This document shows positions 74-53,875 of a stretch of 64,000 bases of DNA, in pieces (position 1 is the first letter of the stretch; the number at the start of each line of letters is the position of its first letter). Source of the DNA: Candidatus Magasanikiibacteriota bacterium (GTDB lineage: Bacteria > Patescibacteriota > Patescibacteriia > Magasanikbacterales > UBA922); assembly GCA_018661775.1 (NCBI GenBank), contig JABJHO010000014.1, positions 42,305 to 106,304 of the forward strand. Reading direction: 5' to 3'. The notes under the pieces were generated by a model, which was not told the DNA's origin, did not search any database, and saw nothing but the letters and a program-made list of their open reading frames with translations. A program made the position numbers and the translations under genes.

Positions 74-763
74 ATGAGAAAAAATATGAAAATTTTGTCT
101 GTTGGTGGGTCAATTATTATTCCAAAAACTGGGTTTAACATTCCTTTTTTAAAGAAGTTTAAAACACTTATTTTGCGTCAGATAAAAAAAGGGGATCGAT
201 TTATTCTCGTTATTGGTGGAGGGGCAACCTGTAGAAAGTATCAAGATGCTGCAAGACAGGTCTCATCTCTTAATGATGAGGATTTGGACTGGATTGGTAT
301 TCACACGACAATATTCAATGCACAGTTTGTGCGGTATATGTTTAAAGATGTTGCCTATAAACATATTATTACTCATCCAAACAAAAAAGTGCAAACCACA
401 AAGCCGGTTATTATTGCGGCCGGTTGGAAGCCTGGATTTTCGACAGATAGGGATGCAGTATTGCTTGCAAAAACGTATGGGGCGAAAGAGTTGTATAATT
501 TGTCCAATATTTCGTATGTGTACGACAAAGATCCAAATATTTACCCAGAGGCAAAAAAACTGAGATATATAGACTGGCAAACACTACGAGATGACATTGT
601 GGGACATACCTGGGAACCAGGAAAAAGCGCACCTTTTGACCCAATTGCCAGTAAAGATGCACAAAAGTTTGGTATGAAAGTGGGTATTCTGGATGGCACA
701 AAGTTGGGGGAAGTTAAAAAAGCAATAGACGGAAAACCCTTTAATGGAACTATAGTAGAGTAA
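74..763 (+). CDS. pyrH: UMP kinase, archaeal type (amino-acid kinase fold)
   Basis: Co-linear with archaeal PyrH (~225 aa): GGS(I/V) N-terminus, VIGGG, GWKPGFSTD, NVDGVY-like and C-terminal GT(I/V)(V/I) motifs. Confidence 0.8.
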   Translation: MRKNMKILSVGGSIIIPKTGFNIPFLKKFKTLILRQIKKGDRFILVIGGGATCRKYQDAARQVSSLNDEDLDWIGIHTTIFNAQFVRYMFKDVAYKHIITHPNKKVQTTKPVIIAAGWKPGFSTDRDAVLLAKTYGAKELYNLSNISYVYDKDPNIYPEAKKLRYIDWQTLRDDIVGHTWEPGKSAPFDPIASKDAQKFGMKVGILDGTKLGEVKKAIDGKPFNGTIVE

Positions 764-2548: not shown

Positions 2549-4252
2549 TTATAACTTTTTTATCATATATGTGCCAACTTTTCTGTAACCAAGTTTTCTA
2601 TAATACCCACGAACACCAACACCCGAGATTACCGCACTTTTTTGTATTCCTGCGTTTTGTATTATTTCTTCGGCCACTTTCATGAGTTTTTTACCAAACC
2701 CTTTGTGTTGCGATGCCTGTTGTCTTTTTTCTCCAATTTTTACGAGCTGACCGTACACATGAAGTTCACGAATAAATGCACAGTGTGAAATTTCTGGGAT
2801 GATTTGTACAACATCTTTACAATGCGCTTTACTAAGCCATACATGTTGTTCTTTTTCCTTTTTGCCGATGTTGTGCGGGATACGGAGTCGTAGGAATCCA
2901 TACACAGCTATACGTTTTGGATCCTCAAGCGTAATAAAGTATTCTGTGCCACCTACTGTTGAGTATGTGTCTACAAAGAGCTGTGGTATCGTGTTTTTTG
3001 GTATATTGTCTTGCTGTCTTGAAATCTCTCTGCACCGCAAGCAGACACATCGCGCATTAGTGTTGTGTAGCTCTTTTGTGAGAGATTCTCGTAGGTTGGT
3101 TATACTGTTTCCGTCTCTAATTTCGTTAGATGGGATATCACGAATAAGTCGAGAAATTCTACAGTATCGTGGTGTAGCTTTTTTCATTGCAAGTAGTGCT
3201 GCAAACAATGCTTTTTCTCCGTATGATTTGTATCTTCCTTCCTTAAACCATGCATAGAGTTCAGCGCTTTCAATGACGGTGTTTGGATAAATCTTTACCA
3301 TGTCTGGGCAAAGTGCTGGATCAGAAAATAGTGATTTGTACATGGTTACATCGTGTTCTGGCGTGGTTCCTGGTAGGTCTGGCATAAAATGGAGATCAAC
3401 TTTGAACCCTGCACAGCGAAGCATATACATTGCTTTCCTGAATTCATCCACAGAGTGCCCACGCTTAATCAGTGATAAAATTGCATCATCTGGCGCCTGA
3501 AGACCAAGCTCTATTCTTGTGCATCCCTGTTTTCGCATGTGGTAGAGTGTTTTTGGTGTGATACAGTCTGGTCTTGTTTCAAGTGTAATTCCTATTATCC
3601 TATGTTTTGCATACTCATTGTACCGTTGTTCTTTTTCTATGCGTTGTGTCAACTCCTCAAGTGGCCGCTTTTCCCAGTACAACTCTTTTGTGGGGGGTAT
3701 TTCTTTTCTTCGTGTGAGGTTGTTGCATGCATTAAAAGACTCCATAATATACCAGTATTGGTATTTTAAGGTATAGGCATTCCATGTACCACCTTTTGTG
3801 ATGTATTCAATTTTATCTACCGGATGCCCATTCTTCTCAAGCATTTCAATCCTTTTTTGCATTAGAAGGTATGGGTTGAAATCGAGCTTGAGTGAGCGAG
3901 CTGCAGCAGGTTCTGAAGCAATATAGCTTTTTGGCATGCGTACTTCTGTTGGGCAGTAGACACACTTGCCTGGGCAAGCATATGGTTTTACTAGTGAAGT
4001 GATTACGGCAATCCCTGATGTACTTCGTATACCAGCTTTCATACATAATTGCTCTAATGCTCTATTTTGTACTACTTTCTTGTCTTTTACCAATTTCTTG
4101 TAGACACCAAGTATGGCCCTGTTTGAGGGTTGTGATATGTGAAGTGCACTACACTCCTTTCTTCGTATATCATCAAACTCACCTTTTGTTTTGGGCTTTT
4201 TTTGAATAATGGCATGTATGATCTGTGTAATGTGTTGTGTTGTTTCAGACAT
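2549..4252 (-). CDS. Elp3-family tRNA uridine34 carboxymethyl-modifying enzyme (radical SAM + C-terminal GNAT acetyltransferase)
   Basis: 567 aa. Radical SAM cysteine cluster CPGKCVYCP, TRPDC elongator region, C-terminal GNAT (HVYGQLV...GFGKKLM...QNAGI). Architecture identical to archaeal and Dehalococcoides Elp3. Confidence 0.85.
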   Translation of the reverse strand: MSETTQHITQIIHAIIQKKPKTKGEFDDIRRKECSALHISQPSNRAILGVYKKLVKDKKVVQNRALEQLCMKAGIRSTSGIAVITSLVKPYACPGKCVYCPTEVRMPKSYIASEPAAARSLKLDFNPYLLMQKRIEMLEKNGHPVDKIEYITKGGTWNAYTLKYQYWYIMESFNACNNLTRRKEIPPTKELYWEKRPLEELTQRIEKEQRYNEYAKHRIIGITLETRPDCITPKTLYHMRKQGCTRIELGLQAPDDAILSLIKRGHSVDEFRKAMYMLRCAGFKVDLHFMPDLPGTTPEHDVTMYKSLFSDPALCPDMVKIYPNTVIESAELYAWFKEGRYKSYGEKALFAALLAMKKATPRYCRISRLIRDIPSNEIRDGNSITNLRESLTKELHNTNARCVCLRCREISRQQDNIPKNTIPQLFVDTYSTVGGTEYFITLEDPKRIAVYGFLRLRIPHNIGKKEKEQHVWLSKAHCKDVVQIIPEISHCAFIRELHVYGQLVKIGEKRQQASQHKGFGKKLMKVAEEIIQNAGIQKSAVISGVGVRGYYRKLGYRKVGTYMIKKL

Positions 4253-4274: not shown

Positions 4275-5006
4275 ATGTGCTATCTTAGTCAAGTCAAAAA
4301 GGATTATTTTATGAATGAATATAGGGCAAAACAAATATTAGAGCAAAACCATGCGGTATATAACACCATCGCAGCGGATTTTTCACGAACCCGTGGATTT
4401 TTGTGGGCCGACCTACATCCGCTCAAGGAGTATGCAAAAGATGTGCACACCGTTGTTGATATTGGGTGTGGCAATGGTCGACTATATCAGCTTTTTTCTC
4501 ACATGGATGTGAATTATATCGGTATTGATTTTAGTGAAGAGCTTGTGGCTATTGCAAGGAATCGTTTTCCGGGGGCGCGGTTTTTTGTCTCAAACATGAT
4601 TAAAACTTCCTTACAAGACAGTATGGCCGATGTTATATACTGTATTGCAGCATTTCAGCATCTTCCAAGCAGAGAAATGCGTATCCAAGCACTTCAAGAG
4701 ATGCGCAGAGTGTTAAAGCCTGGTGGATCCATAGTTATGATGAATTGGAATCTTTTTAGTGACTGGGCACGAGAAAAATATGAAAGCGACGGGAGTGGAG
4801 ATTTTTTTGTACCTTGGAAAAATGAGGAAAAAGAGGTTTTGGGGTTGCGATACTACCATGGTTTTTTACTCGAAGAGCTTCATGAATTAGTACAGTCTGT
4901 TGGGCTAAATATAGTTAAACAACATTACTGTAAAAAAGGTGAAGTAAGTAGTCTGGGGCCTGGTGAAAATATACTTACCGTTATGCGAGCTGCCGAAGAT
5001 GTGTAG
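4275..5006 (+). CDS. Trm9/ALKBH8-type tRNA (carboxymethyluridine34) methyltransferase, class I SAM MTase
   Basis: Co-linear with yeast Trm9: VYNxIAxxFSxTR, (V/I)D(I/V)GCGNG(R/K)(L)Y, IGxDxS..L(V/I)..AR, DFFVPW, RYYH. Likely start at ATG 4311 (MNEYRAKQ). Confidence 0.75.
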   Translation: MCYLSQVKKDYFMNEYRAKQILEQNHAVYNTIAADFSRTRGFLWADLHPLKEYAKDVHTVVDIGCGNGRLYQLFSHMDVNYIGIDFSEELVAIARNRFPGARFFVSNMIKTSLQDSMADVIYCIAAFQHLPSREMRIQALQEMRRVLKPGGSIVMMNWNLFSDWAREKYESDGSGDFFVPWKNEEKEVLGLRYYHGFLLEELHELVQSVGLNIVKQHYCKKGEVSSLGPGENILTVMRAAEDV

Positions 5007-5008
5007 CA

Positions 5009-5893
5009 TTATTTTCCTGAAATAATACAGGTGGTTGGAGTGGTAATACTCCAACCACTTTTTTTTGCTTTTATGAGCCCTGCAACACTTAATGCTTCAT
5101 TTGGTGTCACGGACTCTTGCAATTCATCTTCTAGTATTTTCTGTGCAGCCGCTATGTCTTCGTCGCTCACTATCCAGCCACTTCCCTTTGTTGTGTTCAC
5201 TATTTCTGTCACATTACTTTTTCTGTGTGCAATACGATCTCCGATGCACGTTGCAAGAGATTCTTTGGTTGGGGTAAAGTCATGGTCAAAATGTTTTGCG
5301 ATTGGGTAACATGCTGTGGTTTGTACAACATGTACTTGGGTCGGTAAGGAGTTGTGTGTAATGTATTCTCCGATACCTTGTGCGGTGGTACCAGAAGATG
5401 TGGCGATAAATATGGCACCCATATCGTTGTGTTGAGTAATCTCTCTTGCTAAGGGGTAGTATGATCGCGGCGCTAATCCATCGGTTGATTGTCGGAGATA
5501 TGCTACCCCAGCCTCTTTTCCGGCCATAAAAGCATTTTGTTTTGGCTGATCCACCTGTGTAATTGTAATATTTCTGTCGGTGGCAAGATGTGTGAGTGTG
5601 TCTTTTTTTTGCTGAGGTATTCTTTTACCAATATACACACCAAGCGAAAGCAGGTTATTTGGATGTTTGGTATTATGTTCTTTAATTGCTAAAATAGCTG
5701 CAATAGCAGCATTTCCGGTTGATGATATGGCAAACTTTTTCGTATCGTTTTGTGTATATTCCCGGTGTATCATTTCTGGAATGACCCGTCCTTTGTGTGA
5801 TTGGTATGGGCTAAGATCCTCTCTTTTAAGAAAAAGAGACGGGATGTTGAGTTGTTTTGCTAATTCTGGATGTGAAGATTGTGGAGTATTCAT
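5009..5893 (-). CDS. PLP-dependent enzyme, tryptophan-synthase-beta (fold type II) superfamily, specific reaction unknown
   Basis: 294 aa. LKREDLSPYQSHKGR resembles the PALP lysine motif (SFKDR), and SSGTT replaces the glycine-rich phosphate loop. Too diverged to assign a reaction. Confidence 0.45.
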   Translation of the reverse strand: MNTPQSSHPELAKQLNIPSLFLKREDLSPYQSHKGRVIPEMIHREYTQNDTKKFAISSTGNAAIAAILAIKEHNTKHPNNLLSLGVYIGKRIPQQKKDTLTHLATDRNITITQVDQPKQNAFMAGKEAGVAYLRQSTDGLAPRSYYPLAREITQHNDMGAIFIATSSGTTAQGIGEYITHNSLPTQVHVVQTTACYPIAKHFDHDFTPTKESLATCIGDRIAHRKSNVTEIVNTTKGSGWIVSDEDIAAAQKILEDELQESVTPNEALSVAGLIKAKKSGWSITTPTTCIISGK

Positions 5894-5976
5894 AAAAGTG
5901 GTAACTAGGGTTGGTGTTGAAGATAGGACGGCGTTGTGGTATAGTGTATTATGCTTACTTATTAGTGTATGTGTAT

Positions 5977-6141
5977 ATGAATCTTACCTGTATTGAGTGT
6001 AAAAATCAAGTTGATCTATCATCGTATTCTGACCTTGCTATGGACAGTGTGGTTGAGTGTCAGACGTGTGGCATAACATTGCTTGTGACGAGTATCGACG
6101 ATAACACCGTGTCTGTTGAAATAATGGACGAGGGAAAATAG
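5977..6141 (+). CDS. small Cys4 zinc-ribbon protein, LysW-like amino-group carrier candidate (Trm112-like alternative)
   Basis: CIEC-x18-CQTCGITLLV followed by acidic tail (DDNTVSVEIMDEG). Pattern matches LysW CPECG...CxDCGAELEV...acidic C-terminus. Tool ORF starts at 5911. Small ORF, may not be expressed. Confidence 0.3.
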   Translation: MNLTCIECKNQVDLSSYSDLAMDSVVECQTCGITLLVTSIDDNTVSVEIMDEGK

Positions 6142-6142
6142 A

Positions 6143-7537
6143 TTAGGTTATTGCTTTGCACACCATTTCTATCATACCCCGAAAACCGTGAGACCCAAGG
6201 AAGACTATTACGTCTTCTTTTTTGGTATGTTCAATAAGGTGTGTCACAAGTTCATTATCGTCTTCTATGTATTTTGTGTTTGGGTGTGTGGTCTCAATCA
6301 TGTCGGATAATGCTTTCCCATCCATGATTTCTGGTGTATTTGGCCCTTGTTTAACCGCGCTTAACCGAGGAATAATAACACTGTCTGCATGTGCAAATGC
6401 ATGAGCGTATTGCGGAACTGCTTCTTTATTTCGGTTTCCGGTGTTTGGTTCGTAAATGGCAATAATCTTGCCTGTATATATAGACCGCAATGTAGCAAGT
6501 GTTGCAGCTGCTTTTTCTGGAGAATGCGCAATATCATCAAACACGGTTATATTGTTTTCACACCGTTTTTCTAGTCGTCGTCTCATGCCCAAAAAAGTGC
6601 GTATGGATTGTGTGATGTTTTGTGGTTGTATACCAAGTTCACTAGCCATAGCAAATGCACCGCAAATATTTTCTACCATATATGTTCCAAGTAGTGGTGA
6701 GGTGATACTGTACGTAGAACTGTTATGGATTATGTCAAAATGAAGGCCATTTTTTGTACTAGTTATGTTGGTGTAGGAATACTCATTTTCTCCATCTTTT
6801 CCATAAAATACTACACGAGATTGAGATTGTTTTGCATATTCTTTTACATTTTTTCCATCTTTGCATGCAACAATAAGGCCATTTTTTGGCACAAGAGAAA
6901 CGAGGTGCTCAAATTGCTTCATGTATAATGCTTCTGTTGGGTACAGGTCTGCGTGGTCCCAAGAAATTGAAGTAAGCAGTAAATGAGTGGGGGAGTACAA
7001 CATAAACTTTGGTCGAGCATCCCATCGAGCTGTTTTATATTCATCTCCTTCAAGAACCGAATATGTACCATCAGTTATTGCTGCTGACGGGAAATTATGT
7101 GTAGCAAGTCCACCAAACATGTAGCTTGGCATATACTCATTTTCTTTGAGTATCCAAGACACTAAGGCAGATGTAGTTGTTTTTCCAAAGTTTCCGGCAC
7201 ACACAATAGAATGTTCTTTAACGAGAAATTCTGCGACAAATTCTGGATACGATTTGTATGCAATGTTGTTTTCTTGTACGTAGAGAAATTCCGGATTGGT
7301 GGAAGACGCGACATTTCCCACAATTACCAGATCAGGATTACCATGTTTGGTCATTTTTTCTACGTGCCAACCAGGGTAGTAGGTAATTCCGGCATTTTTG
7401 AGATGAGTAGAAACAGGCGGGTAAAACCCTTTGTCACTGCCAGTAACGGTATATCCTGTTTTGTGGAGCGCAATGGCTAGGGCGCTCATGGCTACGCCAC
7501 AAATACCTATAAAATGGATATGTTCGGTGTTGTTCAT
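6143..7537 (-). CDS. mpl: Mur ligase, Mpl-type (UDP-MurNAc:L-Ala-gamma-D-Glu-DAP murein peptide ligase) or MurC-like
   Basis: 464 aa, co-linear with E. coli Mpl: HFIGICG, GSDKGFYPPVST, PDLVIVGN, GNFGKTTT, EGDEY, DDIAHSP, YEPNTGNR. Confidence 0.8.
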   Translation of the reverse strand: MNNTEHIHFIGICGVAMSALAIALHKTGYTVTGSDKGFYPPVSTHLKNAGITYYPGWHVEKMTKHGNPDLVIVGNVASSTNPEFLYVQENNIAYKSYPEFVAEFLVKEHSIVCAGNFGKTTTSALVSWILKENEYMPSYMFGGLATHNFPSAAITDGTYSVLEGDEYKTARWDARPKFMLYSPTHLLLTSISWDHADLYPTEALYMKQFEHLVSLVPKNGLIVACKDGKNVKEYAKQSQSRVVFYGKDGENEYSYTNITSTKNGLHFDIIHNSSTYSITSPLLGTYMVENICGAFAMASELGIQPQNITQSIRTFLGMRRRLEKRCENNITVFDDIAHSPEKAAATLATLRSIYTGKIIAIYEPNTGNRNKEAVPQYAHAFAHADSVIIPRLSAVKQGPNTPEIMDGKALSDMIETTHPNTKYIEDDNELVTHLIEHTKKEDVIVFLGSHGFRGMIEMVCKAIT

Positions 7538-7540
7538 AAT

Positions 7541-8233
7541 CTATAGTGTATTATCCAGTATATGCTTAAGCTCTTGCAAATCACCACTCCAATTCTTTCC
7601 GTCAAACCACTCGAGCCCGCTAAACTGTAATTTATACGTGTCACTTGGTCTTTGTGCTGAACCTAAATATATATATTTTTTTCCTGTTTCTTTTGCATAT
7701 AGTATGGCTTTGAGCATCATGCCCATACCAATGCTTTTGTTGGGAAAATCTAATGGATAAAAAGGATAGGAATAGTGAAGTATGTCAGTATTTTCATAGC
7801 AGACTGCATACCCAACTACGTCATCACTTTTTGTATACAGAAGGAGCATGGTAAAGTTTGTTTCTTCTGCGTTTGTAAGACATGATTTTACCGCATTGGC
7901 AGAAAATGTCCCTTTGCCAAACTTTTTTTCATAAAAATCTTTTGCACATTTTCCAATAGTCCAGTGGTAATCAGTATACGGAATAGGGTGGCTGGAAAGA
8001 GTAATATCTTCTGTTTTCCGTAAAATTCTTCTGTTTTCGCTTGTTAATACAAACGTATTCAAATCTATTCGTATACTTCGTGTTTGGTCCATTGCGCCTT
8101 TTCCTCGGCGGGTAAACACAAAACCATCGCTATATTTTTGGGTAATATTGTTTGAAACAGTATGTGTAAGTGTTTCTTGTTTCCAGGAAAAATAATCATT
8201 CATAGAATTATTGTAGTGCAATCCATAGTCCAA
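7541..8233 (-). CDS. Bpt/ATE-family aminoacyl-tRNA--protein transferase-like protein (ATE_N without Cys + ATE_C GNAT-like domain)
   Basis: 230 aa. N-terminal FTRRGKG...IRIDL...S.NRRILRK resembles ATE_N. C-terminal VGYAVCY...SIGMGMMLKAILYAKETGKKYIYLGS...YKLQF..LE matches the ATE_C consensus (SavY..SLG...YlYLGY...YK..F.P.E). Confidence 0.55.
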   Translation of the reverse strand: MDYGLHYNNSMNDYFSWKQETLTHTVSNNITQKYSDGFVFTRRGKGAMDQTRSIRIDLNTFVLTSENRRILRKTEDITLSSHPIPYTDYHWTIGKCAKDFYEKKFGKGTFSANAVKSCLTNAEETNFTMLLLYTKSDDVVGYAVCYENTDILHYSYPFYPLDFPNKSIGMGMMLKAILYAKETGKKYIYLGSAQRPSDTYKLQFSGLEWFDGKNWSGDLQELKHILDNTL

Positions 8234-9356
8234 GTAATACGACCATTGCGTGGATAATCCAAAAACGCATCACTGTTTTTTCTTCACTCCAACCGCGCAT
8301 TTCAAAATGGTGATGTAGTGGTGCCATTGCAAAAATACGTCTTCCCAATATGTATCGCCCAAAAATTTGTATAATGACACTGGCAAGTTCTACATAAAAA
8401 ATAAAACCAAGCAGCGGAAGAAGTAGCATGTGATTAATGACAATGGTGTTTATGGCAAGAAGTGACCCAAGACCAAGAGAGCCAACATCACCCATTTGGA
8501 ACCGCGCAGGCTTAATATTGAAATACGTGTACGTAAGCAACGCACCGGTTGTGGTCGCATTGAGTATGGCAATTTCTCCATATCCTTCTATCCAGCTTAA
8601 TATTGTGAGAGCAGAAAATGTAATAATGAGTGCTCCTCCTGCCAATCCATCCATACCGTCTGCCATATTTACTGCATTGGCAGTTGCCACGACAAAGAAT
8701 ATAACAAAGGGAATAATAAGCCAGCTAATGTCTATTGTTCCATCAAACGGAATGGCTATGTTTTGCCAATGCTTTCCAAGTTTTGCATAAATCCACCAGG
8801 CAGCAATGCCACCCGCAATACATTCAGTGAGTAATCTTTCGTGAACATGGAGCCCTTTTCCTGGATGTGAACCCAGCCAAAGTGACGTACGTTTAAAAAT
8901 TGACCACGGAAGGGTAATAATAAGCCAGATTCTATACCATATATTTTTGTGTACCTTAATGAGTGTAAAAATCTGCTTCAATTTTCTGTTTCGTCGTTTT
9001 TTCTCATTAAAAATATTGAGCCAGTCATCTACGCCACCAAGGATTGCCGAAAGAATCATAACCCCAACAGGTACCCAGGTAAAACTTCTCTCCCAGTTAA
9101 AGAGTATGGTAATAACCGCAACAGTTATAATGACGAGCAGTCCACCCATAATTGGTACGCCAGCTTTACTTTTTCGTGCGCCCATGGCAAGTGATGCGTC
9201 ATAATCTGGGTTTCTTACAATATTATGTTTATACAAAAAAGCAATCAGGAGTGGAGCCCAAATAAAAGATGCTATTGTGGCAAGTGCGCCAAAACCTATG
9301 GCGGTCTGTAATATGTGTATTGTGTCTGTAGGTATTATCATAATACTGTTCATCAT
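8208..9356 (-). CDS. mraY: phospho-N-acetylmuramoyl-pentapeptide transferase
   Basis: 382 aa polytopic membrane protein with NAVNMADGMDGLAGG and APLHHHFE MraY signatures. Confidence 0.85.
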   Translation of the reverse strand: MMNSIMIIPTDTIHILQTAIGFGALATIASFIWAPLLIAFLYKHNIVRNPDYDASLAMGARKSKAGVPIMGGLLVIITVAVITILFNWERSFTWVPVGVMILSAILGGVDDWLNIFNEKKRRNRKLKQIFTLIKVHKNIWYRIWLIITLPWSIFKRTSLWLGSHPGKGLHVHERLLTECIAGGIAAWWIYAKLGKHWQNIAIPFDGTIDISWLIIPFVIFFVVATANAVNMADGMDGLAGGALIITFSALTILSWIEGYGEIAILNATTTGALLTYTYFNIKPARFQMGDVGSLGLGSLLAINTIVINHMLLLPLLGFIFYVELASVIIQIFGRYILGRRIFAMAPLHHHFEMRGWSEEKTVMRFWIIHAMVVLLGLWIALQ

Positions 9357-9399: not shown

Positions 9400-10176
9400 T
9401 TATGTTATTAATCTGCGAATTTCTAAGATTTTTGCGCTTTTTGCACGGCCAAATGTTTCATTTGCTTCACCTATTTTTTCATGCTCTTGCCAGGTCTGCT
9501 GTGATAGATCTTTTTTTGTGTCTGTAACGGTAATGTTTCCCTGTCTAATACCATGATTGTATTTTCCATCTGCAAGCCACGCAAGACTGTGTGTATAATG
9601 AATTATTTTCGGTGCACCACCTTCGTAGTCTACTTGGTGCACAATAAGTATATGGTCAAGATCATGTCGTTTTCCTGTATCAAGCATAATAATGCAATCT
9701 CCAGGTTCTATAGTGTTAAGAGAGATCGTTTGGCTGTTTTTGTTGTCTGCCAAAACACGTACATTTGTATTTTCAATGGTGCGGAATTTTCTCACAAGCC
9801 GTCTCAATAGATTGTTGGTTTTTGGAAATGACAAACGTGTGTGCAATGGTTTTGTTGTTTGTGCAATCGTTTGGGCGTTGAGAATGTAATACGCAAGCCC
9901 CGAGCAGTCAATACCAATAGCATGATCTACAAGAAATTTTTTTACCTCTGTCTGAGAAAGTGTCGTAAGGTCAATATGTTTTTTTCTTGCAATAATTTCT
10001 ATTTCTTGCACAATATCTTCTACGGAACCTTTTCCTAAGTGCACACGCAAACCTGCCCGAACCTTTGTCTTTTTATTGTTCATGTACGGGCAAGCAACTG
10101 TGTGTTTTCCAATGGGCATGTGCAGATATGCTTCAATAATATCCATTGCTGGTTTCACTATTTTTTTTGTTGTCAT
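9400..10176 (-). CDS. cytoplasmic NlpC/P60-like (papain-fold Cys/His) hydrolase candidate
   Basis: 258 aa, no signal peptide. GIDCSGLAYYIL matches the NlpC/P60 catalytic Cys motif, and a downstream DHILIVHQV region supplies a candidate catalytic His. Confidence 0.4.
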   Translation of the reverse strand: MTTKKIVKPAMDIIEAYLHMPIGKHTVACPYMNNKKTKVRAGLRVHLGKGSVEDIVQEIEIIARKKHIDLTTLSQTEVKKFLVDHAIGIDCSGLAYYILNAQTIAQTTKPLHTRLSFPKTNNLLRRLVRKFRTIENTNVRVLADNKNSQTISLNTIEPGDCIIMLDTGKRHDLDHILIVHQVDYEGGAPKIIHYTHSLAWLADGKYNHGIRQGNITVTDTKKDLSQQTWQEHEKIGEANETFGRAKSAKILEIRRLIT

Positions 10177-11435
10177 AAAGCGTTTTCTATAATGGTTACA
10201 ATCTTTTTTCCGAGTGCATTATATACACCATGTTTTGTCATAATGCTTTCTTTAGACTGAATGCGTAACAGGTCAGACCCTAGTGTGGTGGTTGTGTACG
10301 GGATAACAGAGAGCCCAGCTTGCTCAAGTGCTTTTTTTGTTTGCGTTACGTCTATGTCTTGTGCGTCTTTTGTGAGCCTGAGAACAAGTTGTGCCCCACG
10401 TGTTACAGGAACAAGTTTGTGATCTTTTGTTTCAAGGTTTGCCAGTGCTGCGACATGCGCTTCAAACGTTGTCATGAGATTTTTTACCTGTTTTGCTATG
10501 GATTGTTGCTGTAAGTGTGATTCAAAAATAACAGAAGCTGGTTGCCTTGCATTAATCTCCAAAAGATATACGTTTCCTGTTTCTTCTTCTACGATAATGT
10601 CTATCCCAAAAGCCCCGCGCCATCCATCGTGTTGCATTTTTTTTCCAACTGCATGGGCTATTTCTTTACACTTCGCCTGTTGATCATATGAGAGTATGTC
10701 TTTTGGAAGACCCCAGTCATTGCCGATGGTGGCAAAAGGTTGGTCGGTAAAAGGAGAGAGCCCAGTAATTTGGTAACTCAATGATCCTGTGTGGATCGCA
10801 TCTTTTGAGACAACGCCGTTGCAAGTAAACGTGGGGCCGTTAATATAGGCCGACACTTTTACCGGTCTTTCGGGAAATGTTTTTTGGAGTTCTTGTAGTT
10901 GTATTTCGCTGTCTATTAATACTGTTCCACTTCCGGTGTGTCCCTGGTTAAATTGCAATACAAATGGTTCATAATTCCATGCAATGTTTTTGCATACATC
11001 TATGTGGTGAGGGGGAAGATGTGTAGTCATTGTACCAAGCCACGCAACTTGTGAAATTTTCTCTTCTATGTTGCTTGCTAGGTTGGTAAGCGGGTTAAGT
11101 AGTGGGATATTATGTGTCTTGCAAATCCGCTCTATTTTTTTTGTAGGTTTGTATACCATAATACCACCAAATGCGTTTTCACCACATTCTTTGGTTTTTT
11201 TTGCAATGTACGCGAGTGATTTTGGATGCTCAAGGAGTTGCCAAGAATCCAAAAGTGTAGTAGTGTCAATGAGTACAATGTGTGACCTTTCTTGGGCATA
11301 TGATTTGGCAAACTCGGTCACATTTGAGATAATAGAAAAATCAGAGATAGACATGTCCATCCCCGATGCTCGCTCAAAAGAGCGATTTACATATATAATG
11401 TGGTGATTTTTAAGCCACGTGAGTAATTTTTCCAT
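10173..11435 (-). CDS. ATP-grasp carboxylate-amine/peptide ligase (Ddl-like or side-chain ligase candidate)
   Basis: Core ATP-grasp signature GAFGIDIIVEEETGNVYLLEINARQ with a pre-ATP-grasp N-domain. Start taken at ATG 11435 (MEKLLTW) because the longer ORF overlaps murB upstream. The 4-nt overlap with the downstream gene implies an operon. Confidence 0.6.
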   Translation of the reverse strand: MEKLLTWLKNHHIIYVNRSFERASGMDMSISDFSIISNVTEFAKSYAQERSHIVLIDTTTLLDSWQLLEHPKSLAYIAKKTKECGENAFGGIMVYKPTKKIERICKTHNIPLLNPLTNLASNIEEKISQVAWLGTMTTHLPPHHIDVCKNIAWNYEPFVLQFNQGHTGSGTVLIDSEIQLQELQKTFPERPVKVSAYINGPTFTCNGVVSKDAIHTGSLSYQITGLSPFTDQPFATIGNDWGLPKDILSYDQQAKCKEIAHAVGKKMQHDGWRGAFGIDIIVEEETGNVYLLEINARQPASVIFESHLQQQSIAKQVKNLMTTFEAHVAALANLETKDHKLVPVTRGAQLVLRLTKDAQDIDVTQTKKALEQAGLSVIPYTTTTLGSDLLRIQSKESIMTKHGVYNALGKKIVTIIENAL

Positions 11436-11468
11436 ATTTAGGCTTAGTATAGTAAAAAAAGCCGTTTT

Positions 11469-12449
11469 TTGCAACCTTTGATATATTTTATGGATCCATT
11501 TTATACACAACTCAAAACCTACGGAAAAGTGCGATGTAATGAATCTTTGGCAAAGCATATTACGTATAAGATTGGTGGCCCTGCCAAGTATTTTGTGATT
11601 GTAAAAGATATGTCCCATCTCCAAGCGCTTTTGCAGTTTATTGACGGAGAAGGGGTAAAACGTATTATCTTGGGTGGAGGAAGTAATATATTATTTCCAG
11701 ATGAAGGTTTTGATGGGGTGGTAATACAGATTATTGATAAGACGTTCTCGATTTCTGGTCCCAAGGTGGAGGCAGTTGCAAGTGCACTGATGAAAGATAT
11801 TTCTGAGGCAACTGTTGCCGCAGGTTTGGCGGGTTTTGTTTGGGCAATTGGTGTTCCTGGAACTATAGCAGGTGCGTTGCGAGGTAATGCTGCGTATAAT
11901 GGGGTTGCAATGGGGGATGCTGTGTCCAGTGTGGAGGTGTACAGAGATGGAGAGGTGGTGCTGTTATCAAACCATGATTGTGTGTTTGGTCCAAAAGATT
12001 CAGTGTTTAAGCATAACAATGATGTGATTTTGCGTATTTGGCTTGCATTAAAAAAAGGAGAGAAGCAAAAGATTGCTCAAGAGGCAATGGAGAATATTTC
12101 ATATAGACAACGCACTCAGCCAGAAGGTAAAGGTTCAGCGGGTTGTGTATTTAAGAACATAGTTGTTGAAGAAAAAGATGTGGATAATTTTTTGGCAAAA
12201 TTTAATGATAAAAAAATACAGGAATGTATTACAAAATATCATAAAATTCCTGTTGGCCGTTTAATTGAATTACTTGGACTAAAGGGGACTGTTTCTGGGA
12301 ATGCACAGATTTCTGAGGTGCATGGTAATTTTGTGATTAATTTGGGCGGTGCAAGTGCAAAAGATGTGTGCATCTTAATTGAACTTATACGGGAAAACGT
12401 GTACAATACCTATGGGTTTGAATTAGAGGAGGAAATTCAAATTGTTTAA
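11469..12449 (+). CDS. murB: UDP-N-acetylenolpyruvoylglucosamine reductase
   Basis: FAD-binding N-terminus (ITYKIGGPAKYF), GGGSNIL motif, ~320 aa. TTG start at 11469 or ATG at 11490. Confidence 0.85.
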   Translation: MQPLIYFMDPFYTQLKTYGKVRCNESLAKHITYKIGGPAKYFVIVKDMSHLQALLQFIDGEGVKRIILGGGSNILFPDEGFDGVVIQIIDKTFSISGPKVEAVASALMKDISEATVAAGLAGFVWAIGVPGTIAGALRGNAAYNGVAMGDAVSSVEVYRDGEVVLLSNHDCVFGPKDSVFKHNNDVILRIWLALKKGEKQKIAQEAMENISYRQRTQPEGKGSAGCVFKNIVVEEKDVDNFLAKFNDKKIQECITKYHKIPVGRLIELLGLKGTVSGNAQISEVHGNFVINLGGASAKDVCILIELIRENVYNTYGFELEEEIQIV

Positions 12450-15817: not shown

Positions 15818-17854
15818 ATGAACAATCAAGAAGGGACAAAGCGCGTAAGAATGCGTTGGGGAATGGTAAGTATTACTATTTGTTTTTTGGCTATGCTCGG
15901 GTTTATATTCCCGAAGTATACAAATGTTGCTATTAACAATATTAATTCTTTGGCATATCTAGGATTACCAAACATATCGGAAGAGTCTTTTCGGTTGGGT
16001 CTAGATTTGCAAGGCGGTGCACATTTAATATATGAGGCAGACGTACAACACGTGGCAATCGAAGATCGTGCAACTGCAGTAGAAGGTGTGCGAGATGCGG
16101 TTGAGCGCCGAGTAAACGGGACGGGAGTTTCTGAACCAAATGTCCAAACAGCGCGTGTGGGTGAGGCATATAGGCTTATTGTTGATCTTCCAGGTATTGA
16201 AAATGTAAATGAAGCAATAAAACTTATAGGGGAGACACCGGTGCTAGAATTTAAGGAAGAAAATGATGTACCATCAAGGGAGCTTAATGAAGAAGAGAGA
16301 GAGTTAATAACACAAACAAATAGTACAGCAAAATCACGTTCAGAGGAGATAGCAGCCCGAGTGGCAGGTGGTGAGTCTTTTGAAGAGCTTGTTTCTGAGC
16401 TTTCTGAAGACACGATCACAAAAAATAATGGAGGGAGTTTGGGAAATGTTGAGGCAGGTCTGAGTATAACAGGCCCACTTTATGATTGGGCGAAGACTCA
16501 TGTGGATGGGGACATTTCTGAAACACCAATAGAAACAGAGCTGGGATATCACGTTGTAAAGCGCGGGAAAGATGGTGAGTCAAAAGAAAAAGTTTCAGCG
16601 AGCCATATACTAATCTGTTATTTTGGTGCACAGGGTTGTGAAGATGAAACATACACAAAAGAGTCGGCACTAGAAAAAGCACAAGAACTTTTTACTCAAG
16701 CAAATGCTGAAAATTTTGCTGATTTAGCAAAAGAATTTTCTACTGGACCAAGTAAGGGTGCGGGTGGGGACCTTGGTTCTTTTGGGCGCGGTATGATGAT
16801 ACCTGCGTTTGAAGAGGTAGTGTTTTCTGCAGAAGTGGGACAAATTGTAGGGCCAGTTGAAACTGATTTTGGGTATCATGTGATTTATAAGACCGATGTG
16901 GAGGAGGTTGCAACGTATGGCCTTGCTCATATTATGAGTAAAAAGCTAACAGAAAGAGAAGTTCTCCCACCGCAGGATTCATGGAAATCAACAGAGCTTT
17001 CCGGAAAACAACTTGAGCGGGCGGACGTTGCTATTGATCCGCAAACAGGTGCCGTACAAGTTTCTCTTGTTTTTGATAAGGAAGGAAAAAAACTATTTGA
17101 AGATATTACACGAAGAAACCTTAATAAACCTGTTGCAATCTTTTTAGATGGCTCTCCTATTAGTATACCAACAGTTCAGGCCGTCATCGGTGGAGGGGAG
17201 GCGGTGATTACTGGATCATTTACCATTCCAGAAGCAAAACTTTTATCTCAAAGACTTAATACGGGTGCATTACCTGTTCCTATTACTCTTGTATCCCAGC
17301 AGGCTATTGGTGCAAGTTTGGGGGCCGAATCACTGGTAAAGAGTTTGCATGCCGGAATAATTGCTATTATATTGGTAATGCTCTTTATGGTTCTGTATTA
17401 TAGATTACCAGGGGTACTGGCAGTTATTTCTTTAAGCATATATATTGTTGCTGCACTTGCTATTTTTAAATTAATAGGCGTGACATTGACACTAGCTGGA
17501 ATTGCTGGATTTATCCTCTCTATTGGTATGGCGGTTGATGCAAATGTACTGATTTTTGAAAGAATGAAGGAGGAGCTGCGCGAAGGGAAGAGTTTGAAAG
17601 TTGCGGTGGAAGAAGGGTTTGTGCGTGCGTGGACATCTATACGAGATGGAAATATTTCAACACTTATTACCTGTGTATTGTTGGTTGGGTTTGGTGCAAG
17701 TTTTGTTCAGGGGTTTGCTGCAACATTGTCAATTGGTATTTTATTGAGCATGTTTTCGGCGATTACCATTACACGATTGTTTTTGCGTGCAATAGTGCCA
17801 CTATTTTCTCGGTACGGCAATAGACTCTTTTTAGGATTTACTGAAAAAAAATAA
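15818..17854 (+). CDS. secD: protein-export membrane protein SecD with inserted tandem parvulin-type PPIase domains
   Basis: LGLDLQGG P1-domain start. Canonical P1 head (AIFLDG...ISIPTV...ITGSF) and six-TM C-terminus. Residues ~150-345 carry two parvulin signatures (GGSLG...ELGYHVV and SHILI...GGDLGSFGRGMMIPAFEEVVF...FGYHVIYK). Confidence 0.9.
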   Translation: MNNQEGTKRVRMRWGMVSITICFLAMLGFIFPKYTNVAINNINSLAYLGLPNISEESFRLGLDLQGGAHLIYEADVQHVAIEDRATAVEGVRDAVERRVNGTGVSEPNVQTARVGEAYRLIVDLPGIENVNEAIKLIGETPVLEFKEENDVPSRELNEEERELITQTNSTAKSRSEEIAARVAGGESFEELVSELSEDTITKNNGGSLGNVEAGLSITGPLYDWAKTHVDGDISETPIETELGYHVVKRGKDGESKEKVSASHILICYFGAQGCEDETYTKESALEKAQELFTQANAENFADLAKEFSTGPSKGAGGDLGSFGRGMMIPAFEEVVFSAEVGQIVGPVETDFGYHVIYKTDVEEVATYGLAHIMSKKLTEREVLPPQDSWKSTELSGKQLERADVAIDPQTGAVQVSLVFDKEGKKLFEDITRRNLNKPVAIFLDGSPISIPTVQAVIGGGEAVITGSFTIPEAKLLSQRLNTGALPVPITLVSQQAIGASLGAESLVKSLHAGIIAIILVMLFMVLYYRLPGVLAVISLSIYIVAALAIFKLIGVTLTLAGIAGFILSIGMAVDANVLIFERMKEELREGKSLKVAVEEGFVRAWTSIRDGNISTLITCVLLVGFGASFVQGFAATLSIGILLSMFSAITITRLFLRAIVPLFSRYGNRLFLGFTEKK

Positions 17855-18852: not shown

Positions 18853-19014
18853 ATGACAGACAATTTTATTCGTCATCTTATAGCATTTCTTGTGGTGCTT
18901 ATTTGTCTTATTATTTTTAGTGTTGGATATATGTCCGGAATACGAGGTTGGTGGTTTTCTGGCTTTACTCTTTTGTTTGTGTACATAATTATCTACAAAC
19001 TTGTTGATGTGTAA
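18853..19014 (+). CDS. possible small two-TM membrane protein (53 aa)
   Basis: ATG ORF MTDNFIRHLIAFLVVLICLIIFSVGYMSGIRGWWFSGFTLLFVYIIIYKLVDV in the secF-downstream gap. Below tool cutoff. Confidence 0.25.
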   Translation: MTDNFIRHLIAFLVVLICLIIFSVGYMSGIRGWWFSGFTLLFVYIIIYKLVDV

Positions 19015-19015
19015 T

Positions 19016-20434
19016 ATGGAAGTAGTCCCTTTATTAAACATATCATCTATTCTAGGAGCCATAGGCAGTAATCCTATGGAAGTTTTTGTGTCAATATTTA
19101 TTTTTTTTGGATACGCCATACTATTTTATACTTTGTGCAAGGCAGTGCTTGAACTATATGTAGATTATAGGCAAAAAAAAAATACACAATCTTGGAATTT
19201 TGTTGTTTTGGCAATAGATATTCCTCCAATGAATATTCAAACCCCAAAAGCGGTTGAACAATTGTTTGCGCATTTGGCGGGTATTTTTAGTAAGCCAAAT
19301 ATTGCTGCAAAATTCCGTGGTGGCCATGTACAGAGGTCTTTTAGTTTTGAAATAGTGAGTATTGACGGATATATACAATTTCTTGTGCATACAGAAGAAG
19401 AGTACAGGGAACTTGTTGAGGCTGCGCTCTATGCGCAATACCCTAACGCTGAAATTACACAAGTAGAAGATTATGTGCAGAAGATTCCAGATAGGTATCC
19501 TCATGAAGAATATGATATTTGGGCTACAGATATTGGATTGGCCGAACACAGTGCATATCCAATTCGGATGTATTCTGATTTTGAACACAAAAACTCGGAA
19601 GAAGAGGTGTTAAAAGATCCAATGAGTGCTTTGCTCGAGAGCTTTTCTCGCATAGGGTCTGGTGAACAGATCTGGTTGCAAATAATAGTAGAGCCAATAT
19701 CGAGTAAGTGGAAAGAAGATGTTATCGAAAAAATCAATGAAGTGTTGGGTAATGTTTCGGTTTCCGGGGCTGGGCCAGGTTCACGTTTTTTTTCCTCTAT
19801 TTCAACAATAATAGGGCAGTTGTTTTTTCATATTTTTGGAGGAGAAGAGACTGCCACTTCGGCTGATACCAGGTCAGAGATATCTTCAGGTTTGTCTCCA
19901 GGCGTCTCTAATGCTGTTCAAGGCATGGAAGAAAAAATGACAAAGGTTGGTTTAAAAACTAACATGCGTGCGGTGTATATAGGAAGAAAGGATAACTTTT
20001 CACCTCAGCGTGGTATCAATGCACTTTTAGGGTCTTTGAATCAGTTTAGTATACCCACAGCCAATGCTATTGTTCCTACGTATGGTGTTTCAACATCATA
20101 TTTTAAGGCAGAAAAGCGTAGTAACCAGAAAAAGAATGTATTAATGGAGCATTATAAAAAAAGAAAAATCAGTATTAAAAAAGGACCCAAACCATATATT
20201 TTAAATGTTGAGGAGCTTGCAAGTATTTGGCATTTCCCACTTTCACATGTAAAAACACCGCTATTACAGGTTGTGGCCTCAAAACCTTCTGAACCACCAG
20301 TTGGTTTGCCAATAGAAATGAGCAGTGGTATGGGTGGTTCTTCACAGGGAGTCGATCTTTCTGGTGTTTTTCTCCCTAAGGAGGGTGAACCAGATGCATA
20401 TAGTGGGCCACCGCCAAACCTACCTTTTGGGTAG
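19016..20434 (+). CDS. hypothetical protein, N-terminal TM helix, C-terminal Gly/Pro-rich tail
   Basis: 472 aa ORF with good coding periodicity. No recognisable motif. Start taken at ATG 19016 (MEVVPLL). Confidence 0.5.
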   Translation: MEVVPLLNISSILGAIGSNPMEVFVSIFIFFGYAILFYTLCKAVLELYVDYRQKKNTQSWNFVVLAIDIPPMNIQTPKAVEQLFAHLAGIFSKPNIAAKFRGGHVQRSFSFEIVSIDGYIQFLVHTEEEYRELVEAALYAQYPNAEITQVEDYVQKIPDRYPHEEYDIWATDIGLAEHSAYPIRMYSDFEHKNSEEEVLKDPMSALLESFSRIGSGEQIWLQIIVEPISSKWKEDVIEKINEVLGNVSVSGAGPGSRFFSSISTIIGQLFFHIFGGEETATSADTRSEISSGLSPGVSNAVQGMEEKMTKVGLKTNMRAVYIGRKDNFSPQRGINALLGSLNQFSIPTANAIVPTYGVSTSYFKAEKRSNQKKNVLMEHYKKRKISIKKGPKPYILNVEELASIWHFPLSHVKTPLLQVVASKPSEPPVGLPIEMSSGMGGSSQGVDLSGVFLPKEGEPDAYSGPPPNLPFG

Positions 20435-26915: not shown

Positions 26916-28082
26916 TTATTCTTTATACACTATATTTAGGTGTGAATATTTTTGCTCCATAATGACCAAATCTTCTTCTGAAAATTTATTTCTATCAATC
27001 AGTACTTTGCCCGTAACAATATCAGGTAGAACTAGCCCATCTGTTGTCGTGAGACCCAAGAGTATGAGATCGCCATCGATTGTTTTTGGAAAAGTAACAC
27101 CTTCTGCTGATTTAAGTTCCCATGTTACTATACTTCCTATGATGGTTTCAGGTAATAGTATGTTGGTGGCTTTCTCTAGGTTGAAAAGATGTATACTTCC
27201 TATTAAGGTTTTTGGAAATTGCACAGTATGTGCTGTCTTGAGTCGATCCATAGAAATGAGCCCATTAACACCGTCTTGTGGAAATACTACATTATGAACT
27301 GACTCAAGACCAATTAAGTTTAACTTACCATGTACTGTTTTGGGAAATTCTAGTCCATCTATTTCAGTGAGTGAAGACATACAAAGACTACCATTAACAG
27401 TTTCGGGTAGTACTAACTTTTCTGTGGAAAGGAGGTAGAATAGCAGAAGATCGCCATGTATTATTTTTGGGAGCGTAAGTGTTTTTGCAGATGTTACTTG
27501 TAGTTGAAGGTCACCATTTACTATTTCTGGACATGTTATCCTTTTGTCTTCATCAATGCGTTCGGGACTAAGGTTGCCATAGTGGTATTTTATTTTACCT
27601 TTCAAAATGGTATTTTCTAAAAAGTTTTTATTTTTGGTTTCTGTGTAAGAGCTTATCTGATCCTCTGTGAAACCAGTAAGTCGAGATATATCCTCTTTAA
27701 AATTATGGATGTCTATAGGAAAATTACGATATGTAGTATCAAGACTAAACGGACCTTTGCCTTCTTTAAAACCCGTCACACCCCCGCTGTTGTTGTATAT
27801 TATGTGTAAATCATTTATTGGTGTGTCTTTAGTAATTCTATCACCATTAATTTTTTTCTTTATTTCTTGAATACGTTGTGTTTTTTTTGCCACTTTCTCC
27901 CATCTTTTTAGTTTAAGTCGTAAGAATGAAGATGTATTAAATACCTGCTCTATGTTTCTTTTTCGTTCTCGTATATTTTCGATATCACCACCTGATTCAA
28001 TAAGAGTCTTAAATTCTTCTAATTTTAGGTTTTGCATTGCTTTTAGCATTTTTTTTATGTCTCTACACTCTTCTTGAGCCAT
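26916..28082 (-). CDS. cytoplasmic repeat protein with nine ~21-residue leucine-rich-type repeats (LPxT(V/I)xGxLxLxxLxxxxxLx)
   Basis: 388 aa. Charged coiled-coil-like N-terminus, then nine tandem degenerate repeats (LPETVNGSL..., FPKTVHGKL..., FPKTLIGSI..., LPETIIGSI..., FPKTIDGDL...). Confidence 0.6.
   Translation of the reverse strand: MAQEECRDIKKMLKAMQNLKLEEFKTLIESGGDIENIRERKRNIEQVFNTSSFLRLKLKRWEKVAKKTQRIQEIKKKINGDRITKDTPINDLHIIYNNSGGVTGFKEGKGPFSLDTTYRNFPIDIHNFKEDISRLTGFTEDQISSYTETKNKNFLENTILKGKIKYHYGNLSPERIDEDKRITCPEIVNGDLQLQVTSAKTLTLPKIIHGDLLLFYLLSTEKLVLPETVNGSLCMSSLTEIDGLEFPKTVHGKLNLIGLESVHNVVFPQDGVNGLISMDRLKTAHTVQFPKTLIGSIHLFNLEKATNILLPETIIGSIVTWELKSAEGVTFPKTIDGDLILLGLTTTDGLVLPDIVTGKVLIDRNKFSEEDLVIMEQKYSHLNIVYKE
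26958..27506 (-). repeat. coding tandem repeat array (~63 nt period, 9 copies) inside repeat protein
   Basis: Periodicity seen in translated sequence. DNA copies are degenerate. Confidence 0.5.
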
Positions 28083-34280: not shown

Positions 34281-34370
34281 GGAGAGATGGCAGAGTGGTC
34301 GAATGCGCAGCCTTGGAAAGGCTGTGTACGAGCAATCGTACCGCGGGTTCGAATCCCGCTCTCTCCGCCA
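34281..34370 (+). tRNA. tRNA-Ser (anticodon GGA), class II with long variable arm, CCA encoded
   Basis: Acceptor GGAGAGA/TCTCTCC, anticodon loop TTGGAAA, T-arm GCGGGTTCGAATCCCGC, ends GCCA. Confidence 0.8.
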
Positions 34371-34378
34371 ATATAAAA

Positions 34379-53873: not shown

Positions 53874-53875
53874 CT

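Follow-up and report, generated by a model that had tools for sequence, protein, structure and literature searches.

Introduction

The amino-group carrier proteins LysW and ArgW serve the α-aminoadipate lysine pathway and the arginine pathway of Thermus and archaea. To our knowledge, carriers of the LysW type are known only from lysine and arginine biosynthesis and from a few Streptomyces secondary-metabolite pathways, always with a Glu-ended tail and a RimK-type loader. In LysW, the substrate is attached to the C-terminal Glu (PMC12998189). Here, we analyze a LysW-like mini-protein of 54 amino acids (aa) that is encoded at positions 5977..6141 (+) of a 64-kb stretch of DNA from a Candidatus Magasanikiibacteriota bacterium (hereafter the window, meaning all 64,000 nucleotides), lies in a cell-wall precursor cluster and ends in lysine in nearly all members of its family. 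Together with a fold-type II pyridoxal phosphate (PLP) enzyme of the PALP family, an ATP-grasp ligase and an NlpC/P60-like cysteine amidase, it forms a conserved four-gene module, and this suggests that a carrier protein takes part in a so far undescribed step of cell-wall precursor synthesis.

Several other systems provide points of comparison. In butirosin biosynthesis, BtrI, BtrJ and BtrK supply a carrier protein, an ATP-grasp loader and a PLP enzyme that acts on the tethered amino acid, with a later deprotection, and in Mycobacterium the C-terminus of the small carrier CysO is the nucleophile for the PALP-family enzyme CysM. In the tubulin cycle, the terminal residue of an acidic tail is removed by the papain-like cysteine peptidase vasohibin and re-added by the ATP-grasp ligase TTL. 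Closest to the cell wall, an ATP-grasp D-aspartate ligase of lactic acid bacteria acts on the N-ε of Lys3, and a racemase is encoded in the same operon (PMC4155827).

A conserved mini-protein gene

The first-pass annotation of the window had placed a Cys4 zinc-ribbon mini-protein between a PLP enzyme and the mur genes, and the open reading frame (ORF; ATG to TAG, sequence MNLTCIECKNQVDLSSYSDLAMDSVVECQTCGITLLVTSIDDNTVSVEIMDEGK), its motifs (C5-x2-C8 and C28-x2-C31-G-I-T-L-x-V) and its C-terminal EGK are as described there, except that the spacer between the two CxxC pairs measures 19 residues instead of the 18 given. The gene is flanked by the divergent PALP gene and a convergent MurC-like gene (Table 1) and occurs once in the window. 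A record identical to the mini-protein exists as a hypothetical protein of a Candidatus Magasanikbacteria genome. Its presence in related genomes is borne out by 14 close homologs of 54–55 aa with identities down to 60%, and profile searches with the family returned 69 matches among 1.84 billion representatives and 347 among 5.8 billion sequences, nearly all of them 50–65 aa long. Named records point to several Patescibacteria lineages (Magasanikbacteria, Shapirobacteria, Paceibacter, and Parcubacteria). The ratio of non-synonymous to synonymous substitution rates (dN/dS) is 0.26 against the nearest ortholog (dS 0.77); synonymous sites are saturated in comparisons with the other orthologs. The gene is under purifying selection. 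A spurious ORF is ruled out by this value and by the conservation of the family; 5977-6141 is a real, conserved gene with a signal far above chance.

A longer version of the protein, initiated at a TTG at 5911, had been raised as the form that might turn out to be conserved. The conserved start is instead the ATG at 5977: in homologs from other lineages conservation begins at the methionine of MNLTC and in-frame stop codons lie a few codons upstream, and a promoter-like site (Table 1) falls within the putative extension, which together rule out the longer start. An Rfam scan found no RNA element near the gene.

Fold and lysine tail of the mini-protein

The mini-protein matches the Pfam family PF21344 (Zn_ribbon_LysW) with 30.7 bits (gathering score 27, E 2.4e-7), as do 44 of 44 diverse relatives, with a best E of 3.9e-12. 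An AlphaFold (AF2) model from the family alignment has a pLDDT (predicted local distance difference test) of 87.3, with confidence dropping in the last residues, and the top five Foldseek matches of this model in the PDB are all LysW chains (3wwl, 3wwn_B, 5eio_C, 3vpb_E, and 5k2m_E; TM 0.62–0.75, probability about 1.0). Because domain match, model and structural matches coincide, the mini-protein is predicted to have the LysW fold, a Cys4 zinc ribbon followed by a β-hairpin, in agreement with the initial proposal of a LysW-like protein.

The protein is strongly acidic (10 Asp and Glu against 2 Lys and Arg; isoelectric point, pI, 4.05), and in this respect its tail mirrors LysW/ArgW as had been suggested, but the terminal residue does not. 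The window protein ends in D-E-G-K and not in Glu, and 221 of the 229 distinct family sequences end in lysine, the remaining eight being sequences cut off at contig ends, gene calls with a frameshift or, in one case, an unrelated tandem protein. Glu is found at position -3 in 218 of the 229, Gly (131) or Glu (88) at -2 and an acidic residue (Asp or Glu) at -4, giving the consensus [DE]-E-[GE]-K, which is most often realized as DEGK (123 sequences) or EEEK (78) and occasionally as EEGK (7) or QEEK (5). The only invariant positions in an alignment of 44 sequences are the four Cys, N10, E27, and the terminal lysine.

Some sub-lineages depart from this pattern. In the metagenome loci L111-L123 the first CxxC is replaced by C-P-D-P-N-C, and the C-terminal half is even closer to LysW (...ISTDPPQVALLEEEK). 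The mini-protein of L109 ends ...AVVKGK, so that the terminal lysine is kept and the acidic run is absent.

Relation to LysW/ArgW and to Trm112

The LysW fold, the passed Pfam domain threshold and the fact that some source pipelines automatically name relatives "lysine biosynthesis protein LysW" would suit a genuine amino-group carrier of lysine or arginine biosynthesis, yet this reading has next to no probability. Profiles that are specific for such carriers give scores far under their cut-offs, namely 22.7 bits on the domain-type NCBIfam model NF041070 carrier_LysW_Arch (cut-off 75) and 15.6 bits on the equivalog TIGR01206 (cut-off 53.2), and the relatives of the mini-protein likewise match the NCBIfam LysW models weakly; of the profiles named for checking in the first-pass annotation, the LysW zinc ribbon matches and Trm112 does not. 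In place of the substrate-bearing Glu (PMC12998189) there is a terminal lysine, and since the tail ends in [DE]-E-[GE]-K and not in EDWGE, the γ-carboxyl attachment site is missing. No candidate for LysX, LysZ, LysY, LysJ, or LysK was found among the annotated ORFs of the window, and no gene for LysZ, LysY, LysJ, or LysK in the related loci examined; the partner ATP-grasp is also not of the RimK/LysX type (see below). Tail, scores, partner set and ligase clade together rule out a true LysW or ArgW. The sole amino-acid-kinase-family gene of the window (74..763, +), considered as a LysZ candidate, is actually a UMP kinase, and one of archaeal type, scoring 161.9 bits on TIGR02076 (above cut-off) and 40.9 bits on the bacterial pyrH model.

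It had alternatively been proposed that the mini-protein is a Trm112-like activator of the nearby Trm9-like methyltransferase, possibly acting with Elp3. The two genes (4275-5006 and 2549-4252) do lie 1–3 kb upstream, also in some relatives, and Trm112_arch gives marginal matches in 4 of 44 family members (best E 8.2e-4), but the window protein itself matches neither Pfam Trm112p nor NCBIfam Trm112_arch at E <= 1, and its top structural match is the LysW fold. Moreover, in the loci anchored on the ATP-grasp gene (described below) the methyltransferase is near in only 11 of 80 and Elp3 in only 9 of 80, and both are absent from L005 and from the distant loci L013, L016, and L017, the mini-anchored loci that were scanned for them. 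The missing profile match and the unconserved neighborhood rule out a Trm112 partner of Trm9, and we regard this possibility as barely conceivable.

The Elp3 homolog (2549..4252, -) combines radical SAM and GNAT domains (484 bits on TIGR01211) and adjoins the Trm9/UbiE-like methyltransferase gene (4275..5006, +). The pair recurs in 9–11 of 80 related Magasanikbacteria loci and is, as judged from sequence, a predicted eukaryote/archaea-style tRNA U34 modification pair in a bacterium of the candidate phyla radiation (CPR).

A conserved four-gene module

The neighborhood was compared in two sets of loci. A metagenome set comprises 31 loci anchored on mini-proteins of the ...EEEK type, which are about 30–40% identical to the window protein, and a genome set comprises 80 loci anchored on the ATP-grasp gene, almost all from Magasanikbacteria; the family-wide alignment of the mini-protein was too divergent as a query for the genome scan, for which the ATP-grasp and ...EEEK sub-alignments were used. 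In all look-ups and scans, the PALP gene adjoins the mini-protein gene in every lineage examined, usually divergently and at a distance of 27–110 bp. It does so in 28 of the 31 metagenome loci, the other three being two contigs of ~1.1 kb and one spurious match, and each case of a mini-protein gene without PALP among the 80 genome loci is a contig end. Orthologs of the ATP-grasp and NlpC/P60-like proteins occur in the metagenome loci whenever the contig is long enough. In the genome set, NlpC/P60 adjoins ATP-grasp in 77 of 80 loci, and of the 43 loci that reach at least 300 bp beyond the MurC 3' end, 41 contain the mini-protein gene.

At least three gene orders of the module are found across distant lineages. 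In one of them, [NlpC/P60-ATP-grasp-PALP] is divergent from the mini-protein gene; in another, [ATP-grasp-PALP] is divergent from it, and the mini-protein gene is convergent with [NlpC/P60-MraY-Mur ligase]; L102 has a single-strand operon with the order mini-ATE_C-MurC-PALP-x-ATP-grasp-NlpC/P60-MraY. The most compact form (L130 and L016) is an overlapping MraY-NlpC/P60-ATP-grasp-PALP operon 27 bp from the mini-protein gene. The intervening genes differ by locus and include PCMT, YceG, methyltransferase, and glycosidase-like proteins, which are ruled out as module members for this reason. The core module is therefore made up of four genes, encoding the mini-protein, PALP, ATP-grasp, and NlpC/P60, and is usually attached to mraY; it is often also near Mur ligases, MurA/B, FemAB, or ATE_C-like transferases. 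The link that had been suggested between the mini-protein and an ATP-grasp ligase about 4.0 kb away is hence a conserved association, but the ligase is not of the RimK type with which LysW and ArgW work.

Table 1. Features of the mini-protein locus and its cell-wall gene surroundings (positions in the window).
Feature	Position	Strand	Remarks
Promoter candidate, sigma-70-like, TTGAAG-17-TATAGT with TG extension (extended -10)	5917..5945	+	consensus match only; 32 nt 5' of the ATG
Mini-protein coding sequence, predicted LysW-fold Cys4 zinc ribbon	5977..6141	+	acidic globular domain and flexible tail ending D-E-G-K
Terminator-like hairpin followed by a T-run	6197..6220	+	consensus match only; 56 nt past the stop codon, within the 3' end of the convergent MurC-like gene
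Fold-type II PLP enzyme (PALP family)	5009..5893	-	nearest to threonine synthases; divergent from the mini-protein gene and its most constant neighbor
MurC/Mpl-like Mur ligase	6143..7537	-	convergent with the mini-protein gene, one base between the stop codons
ATE_C/FemX-like GNAT-fold aminoacyl-transferase candidate	7541..8233	-	present in the cluster of Magasanikbacteria and of some further lineages; outside the module core
MraY (phospho-MurNAc-pentapeptide translocase)	8208..9356	-	cell-wall gene most often attached to the module
Cytoplasmic NlpC/P60-like cysteine amidase	9400..10176	-	GxDCSG and DH motifs; gene overlaps the ATP-grasp gene by 4 bp
ATP-grasp ligase, 420 aa	10173..11435	-	start at Met64 of the 483-aa ORF
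MurB	11469..12449	+	divergent from the ATP-grasp gene; marks the cluster edge

The partner enzymes and the cell-wall genes

The mechanically called ATP-grasp ORF (10173..11624, -, TTG start, 483 aa) is 63 codons too long, as the orthologs all begin at the position of Met64, and the corrected gene lies 33 bp from the divergent MurB gene. A search with the family returned 1,305 matches. The E-x-N-x-R metal-binding motif is invariant. Natural fusions of ATP-grasp and NlpC/P60 of about 670 aa exist (P0230, 666 aa, and P0256), and residues 424-663 of P0230 are 40% identical to the window NlpC/P60-like protein over its full length. Other Magasanikbacteria have ATP-grasp proteins of 540–610 aa with a C-terminal NUDIX hydrolase domain (P0235, P0245, and others), a fusion that hints at a nucleotide-linked substrate. 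Profile comparison of the ATP-grasp with PDB sequences yielded nothing useful (E >= 0.06). In comparison with individual ligases, the ATP-grasp scored highest against PurK (27.4), followed by biotin carboxylase (24.6), L-amino-acid ligase (24.0), a Streptomyces ATP-grasp peptide ligase (23.6), PGM1 (23.5), PylC (23.1), and BesA (22.9), and well lower against LysX/ArgX (16-17), Ddl (15-17), RimK (about 15), and TTL/TTLL and graspetide macrocyclases (11-14.5). In structure it falls into the PurK/biotin-carboxylase/L-amino-acid-ligase/PylC clade, and not into that of RimK/LysX. A graspetide or microviridin-type precursor peptide was also considered for the mini-protein and is ruled out, as its partner ATP-grasp falls outside the macrocyclase type of MdnB/C, PsnB, or CdnC.

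The PALP protein retains the PLP lysine (S-H-K-G-R) and the S-S-G-N and S-S-G-T loops. Its profile best matches threonine synthases (E 5.8e-19 to 4.6e-16), then threonine/serine dehydratases (3e-14 to 1e-10), and then aspartate and serine racemases (7e-9 and 2e-8). With 294 aa the protein starts at the core domain, and in the NCBIfam threonine-synthase models (406-442 positions) the part that aligns to it begins only at about position 77. The Arg that binds phosphate in threonine synthase does not keep its place in the alignment, which leaves the substrate of PALP uncertain. The NlpC/P60-like protein retains the catalytic G-x-D-C-S-G and D-H motifs, and its profile is too divergent for matches among PDB sequences (E >= 0.23).

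With 190.5 bits, the module-linked translocase gene narrowly misses the cut-off of the mraY equivalog model (192.05). A second gene of the GT4 family of polyprenyl-phosphate sugar-phosphate transferases (56672..57742, +) was considered as the actual MraY of the window; as it is WecA-like, this is ruled out, and the module-linked gene is taken as MraY. The Mur ligase scores almost equally on the equivalog models of Mpl (272.6 bits) and MurC (272.0 bits), below both cut-offs, so that its substrate could be L-Ala or a preformed peptide. The gene between MurC and MraY, which overlaps the latter by 26 bp, encodes an arginyl/leucyl-tRNA-protein transferase-like (ATE_C) or FemX-like GNAT protein; the gene is shared by 53 of the 80 related loci and by some distant ones, and its product may add branches to the stem peptide in a tRNA-dependent manner.

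Other features of the window

The WecA-like gene is located downstream of MraW (52179..53105), with a ClpB-like AAA+ gene (53783..56650) near both; in classical bacteria the position downstream of mraW is that of the division and cell wall (dcw) cluster. The window as a whole yielded no gene for MurD/E/F or Ddl. An ORF of 789 aa (44885..47254, +) carries the N- and C-terminal domains of glucose-6-phosphate dehydrogenase and the NAD-binding and C-terminal domains of 6-phosphogluconate dehydrogenase; two enzymes of the oxidative pentose-phosphate pathway appear to be fused in it. A SecD-like protein (15818..17854, +) combines PPIC-type rotamase domains (Rotamase_3, E 5e-38) with a SecDF P1 head and SecD/F C-terminal domains. 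Two adjacent tRNA-Ser genes with the anticodons GGA and CGA (34281..34467, +) are the only Rfam and ARAGORN matches in the window. Three ORFs of 477, 388, and 456 aa (19001..20434, +; 26916..28082, -; 58804..60174, +) have no Pfam match at E <= 1e-5, and the last of them has no NCBIfam match either.

Proposed function of the module

We propose, by analogy with LysW, that the mini-protein is a carrier or adaptor whose lysine tail is loaded by the ligase, modified through the PLP enzyme and cleared by the amidase, thereby supplying or editing an amino acid of peptidoglycan, and we rate the chances of this proposal as about even. The globular domain would serve as a docking handle, as in LysW, and the flexible tail ([DE]-E-[GE]-K-COOH) would reach into the active sites of the partners. 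The ATP-grasp would couple the terminal lysine to a small substrate with a carboxylate or amine group, of which an amino acid is the most likely. The bond would most likely be an amide on the ε-amine, as in PylC or AslA; extension of the α-carboxylate is the alternative. The PLP enzyme would then transform the tethered amino acid, whose α-amino group is free, and the NlpC/P60 amidase would release the product for the peptidoglycan peptide or reset the tail.

Covalent loading, the attachment atom, the substrate and the connection to peptidoglycan chemistry are all inferred here from the neighboring genes and from analogy. With Gly and Glu alternating at position -2, attachment through a side chain is excluded at this position, which leaves as candidate sites the terminal lysine, through its ε-amine or α-carboxylate, and possibly the Glu at -3. 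The structural clade of the ATP-grasp typically activates small carboxylates and uses amine nucleophiles, PylC using the N-ε of lysine, and acylation of the lysine ε-amine is favored on these grounds; the ligases that activate a protein C-terminus (RimK, LysX, and TTL) are much more distant. PALP (pI 8.6) and NlpC/P60 (pI 9.5) carry charges that fit an electrostatic docking with the acidic mini-protein. A more specific version, which is possible but rather doubtful, is that of a "mirror-image LysW", a carboxyl-group carrier in which the ATP-grasp would acylate the lysine ε-amine through the α- or side-chain carboxyl of an amino acid, PALP would act on the tethered residue and NlpC/P60 would release a D- or non-canonical amino acid, or a dipeptide unit, for the MraY substrate.

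A number of points weigh against a carrier. The module splits, as the genome of L001 carries its ATP-grasp on another contig (L081), and seven long ATP-grasp loci lack both MurC and the mini-protein gene within 10 kb. The synteny within Magasanikbacteria could largely be inherited, and the ...EEEK-type loci are metagenome sequences without assigned taxonomy. The ATP-grasp, with a pI of 7.0, is not basic. As a rule, PLP enzymes of the threonine-synthase type bind the free carboxylate of the substrate, and we know of no PALP-family enzyme that acts on a protein-tethered amino acid; in the PALP protein of the module the phosphate-binding Arg is not position-conserved, with R134 nearby invariant. 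All of the chemistry is read from neighbors and analogous systems, and UDP-MurNAc-peptides could be the direct substrates of the ATP-grasp, PALP, and amidase, with no carrier involved.

Such direct action is at the core of the strongest rival, a branch pathway like AslA/RacD, in which PALP would racemize or make an unusual amino acid, the ATP-grasp would ligate it to the Lys3 ε-amine or elsewhere on the UDP-MurNAc-peptide, and NlpC/P60 would edit or recycle stem peptides. The mini-protein would be an accessory, either a regulator or, through its acidic-Lys-COOH tail, a mimic of the γ-D-Glu-L-Lys end of UDP-MurNAc-tripeptide. A precedent exists in lactic acid bacteria (PMC4155827), and the tight attachment of the module to mraY, Mur ligases and FemAB/ATE_C-like transferases would be in line with it, as would the NUDIX fusions. 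The PALP profile does match aspartate and serine racemases, but it is nearer to threonine synthases, and the fusion of ligase and amidase suggests that one bond is made and broken in turn, and not that a decoration is only ever added. The pathway also offers no reason why a protein with a LysW fold and an invariant lysine should be the most constant neighbor of PALP, and we consider it unlikely.

The combination of ATP-grasp and papain-like cysteine hydrolase in overlapping or fused genes with an acidic tail that has one invariant terminal residue recalls tubulin tyrosination: the amidase would remove the terminal lysine and the ATP-grasp re-add it (or another residue would be added and removed), and the mini-protein would thereby regulate PALP or the flux of cell-wall precursors. 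The clade of the ATP-grasp makes such a tail switch less likely, and we judge it distinctly improbable. Highly improbable in our view is a purely non-covalent role, in which the mini-protein would be a zinc-ribbon subunit or stabilizer of PALP with a tail that only binds. Some long threonine synthases carry N-terminal zinc ribbons, of which the mini-protein would be a detached form, and this would agree with a PALP that is short, begins at the core domain and is the most constant neighbor, usually divergent by 27–110 bp. However, no fusion of mini-protein and PALP was found among the 69 and 347 family matches, and a structural role predicts neither an invariant terminal lysine on a flexible tail of low model confidence nor the co-occurrence of ligase and amidase.

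Comparison with known systems

The mini-protein shares with LysW and ArgW a Cys4 zinc-ribbon fold, a length of ~54 aa, a strongly acidic character and a flexible C-terminal tail with a conserved motif, and is likewise encoded with an ATP-grasp ligase and a potential releasing hydrolase, so that by analogy the two likely have a working principle in common, in which several enzymes are offered a substrate that is tethered to a protein handle. They differ in the tail, which is ...[DE]-E-[GE]-K and offers a terminal amine where LysW has ...EDWGE, and in the ligase, which is of the PurK/L-amino-acid-ligase/PylC clade and not RimK/LysX. The other partners are a fold-type II PLP enzyme and an NlpC/P60 amidase in contrast to a kinase, a reductase, an aminotransferase, and an M20 peptidase, and the genes lie in the mraY/mur cluster of Patescibacteria instead of an amino-acid biosynthesis operon.

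The butirosin and CysO-CysM systems show a similar logic with unrelated parts. Butirosin biosynthesis has the same sequence of carrier, ATP-grasp, PLP enzyme, and hydrolytic release as is proposed for the module, but BtrI, a phosphopantetheinyl acyl carrier protein, holds its substrate through a thioester; there is no relation between the folds, and the pathway is one of secondary metabolism. In CysO-CysM the tail of a small protein enters the active site of an adjacently encoded fold-type II PLP enzyme, as it would here; CysO, however, is ubiquitin-like with a Gly-Gly thiocarboxylate, the system has no ATP-grasp or NlpC/P60, and its release protease is a JAMM metalloprotease. AslA/Aslfm and RacD of lactococci and enterococci come close in that an ATP-grasp is paired with an enzyme preparing an unusual amino acid, the nucleophile is a lysine ε-amine after an acidic residue and the product serves peptidoglycan precursor synthesis (PMC4155827). 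Unlike the module, this system is without a carrier mini-protein or a dedicated amidase, and its racemase is of the Asp/Glu-racemase and not the PALP type. PylC of the pyrrolysine pathway and PGM1 use free lysine or a peptide N-terminus as substrates and not the C-terminal lysine of a folded carrier, and their pathways are unrelated to the cell wall.

Significance

The Zn_ribbon_LysW domain is already known, as is the labeling of relatives as "LysW" by some pipelines, and the literature searched contained no description of a Lys-tailed LysW subfamily or of the four-gene module, although an earlier computational mention is possible. What is new is a LysW-like putative carrier or adaptor with a different tail chemistry, different partner enzymes, and a cell-wall context. 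The Lys-tailed subfamily has hundreds of members, and its genes sit among those for cell-wall precursor synthesis in Patescibacteria, a very large radiation of mostly uncultivated bacteria whose metabolism is reduced and whose wall is uncharacterized.

The module is compact, easily cloned and directly testable in vitro, even if the mini-protein should be only a regulator. If the carrier model is true, it would define three enzyme families that are currently without an assigned function and would extend the carrier-protein principle to peptidoglycan synthesis, and in the form of a "mirror-image LysW" it would amount to a previously unknown carrier-dependent step in bacterial peptidoglycan precursor synthesis. 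For the CPR bacteria themselves, a carrier would mean an unrecognized building block or editing step in their cell walls.

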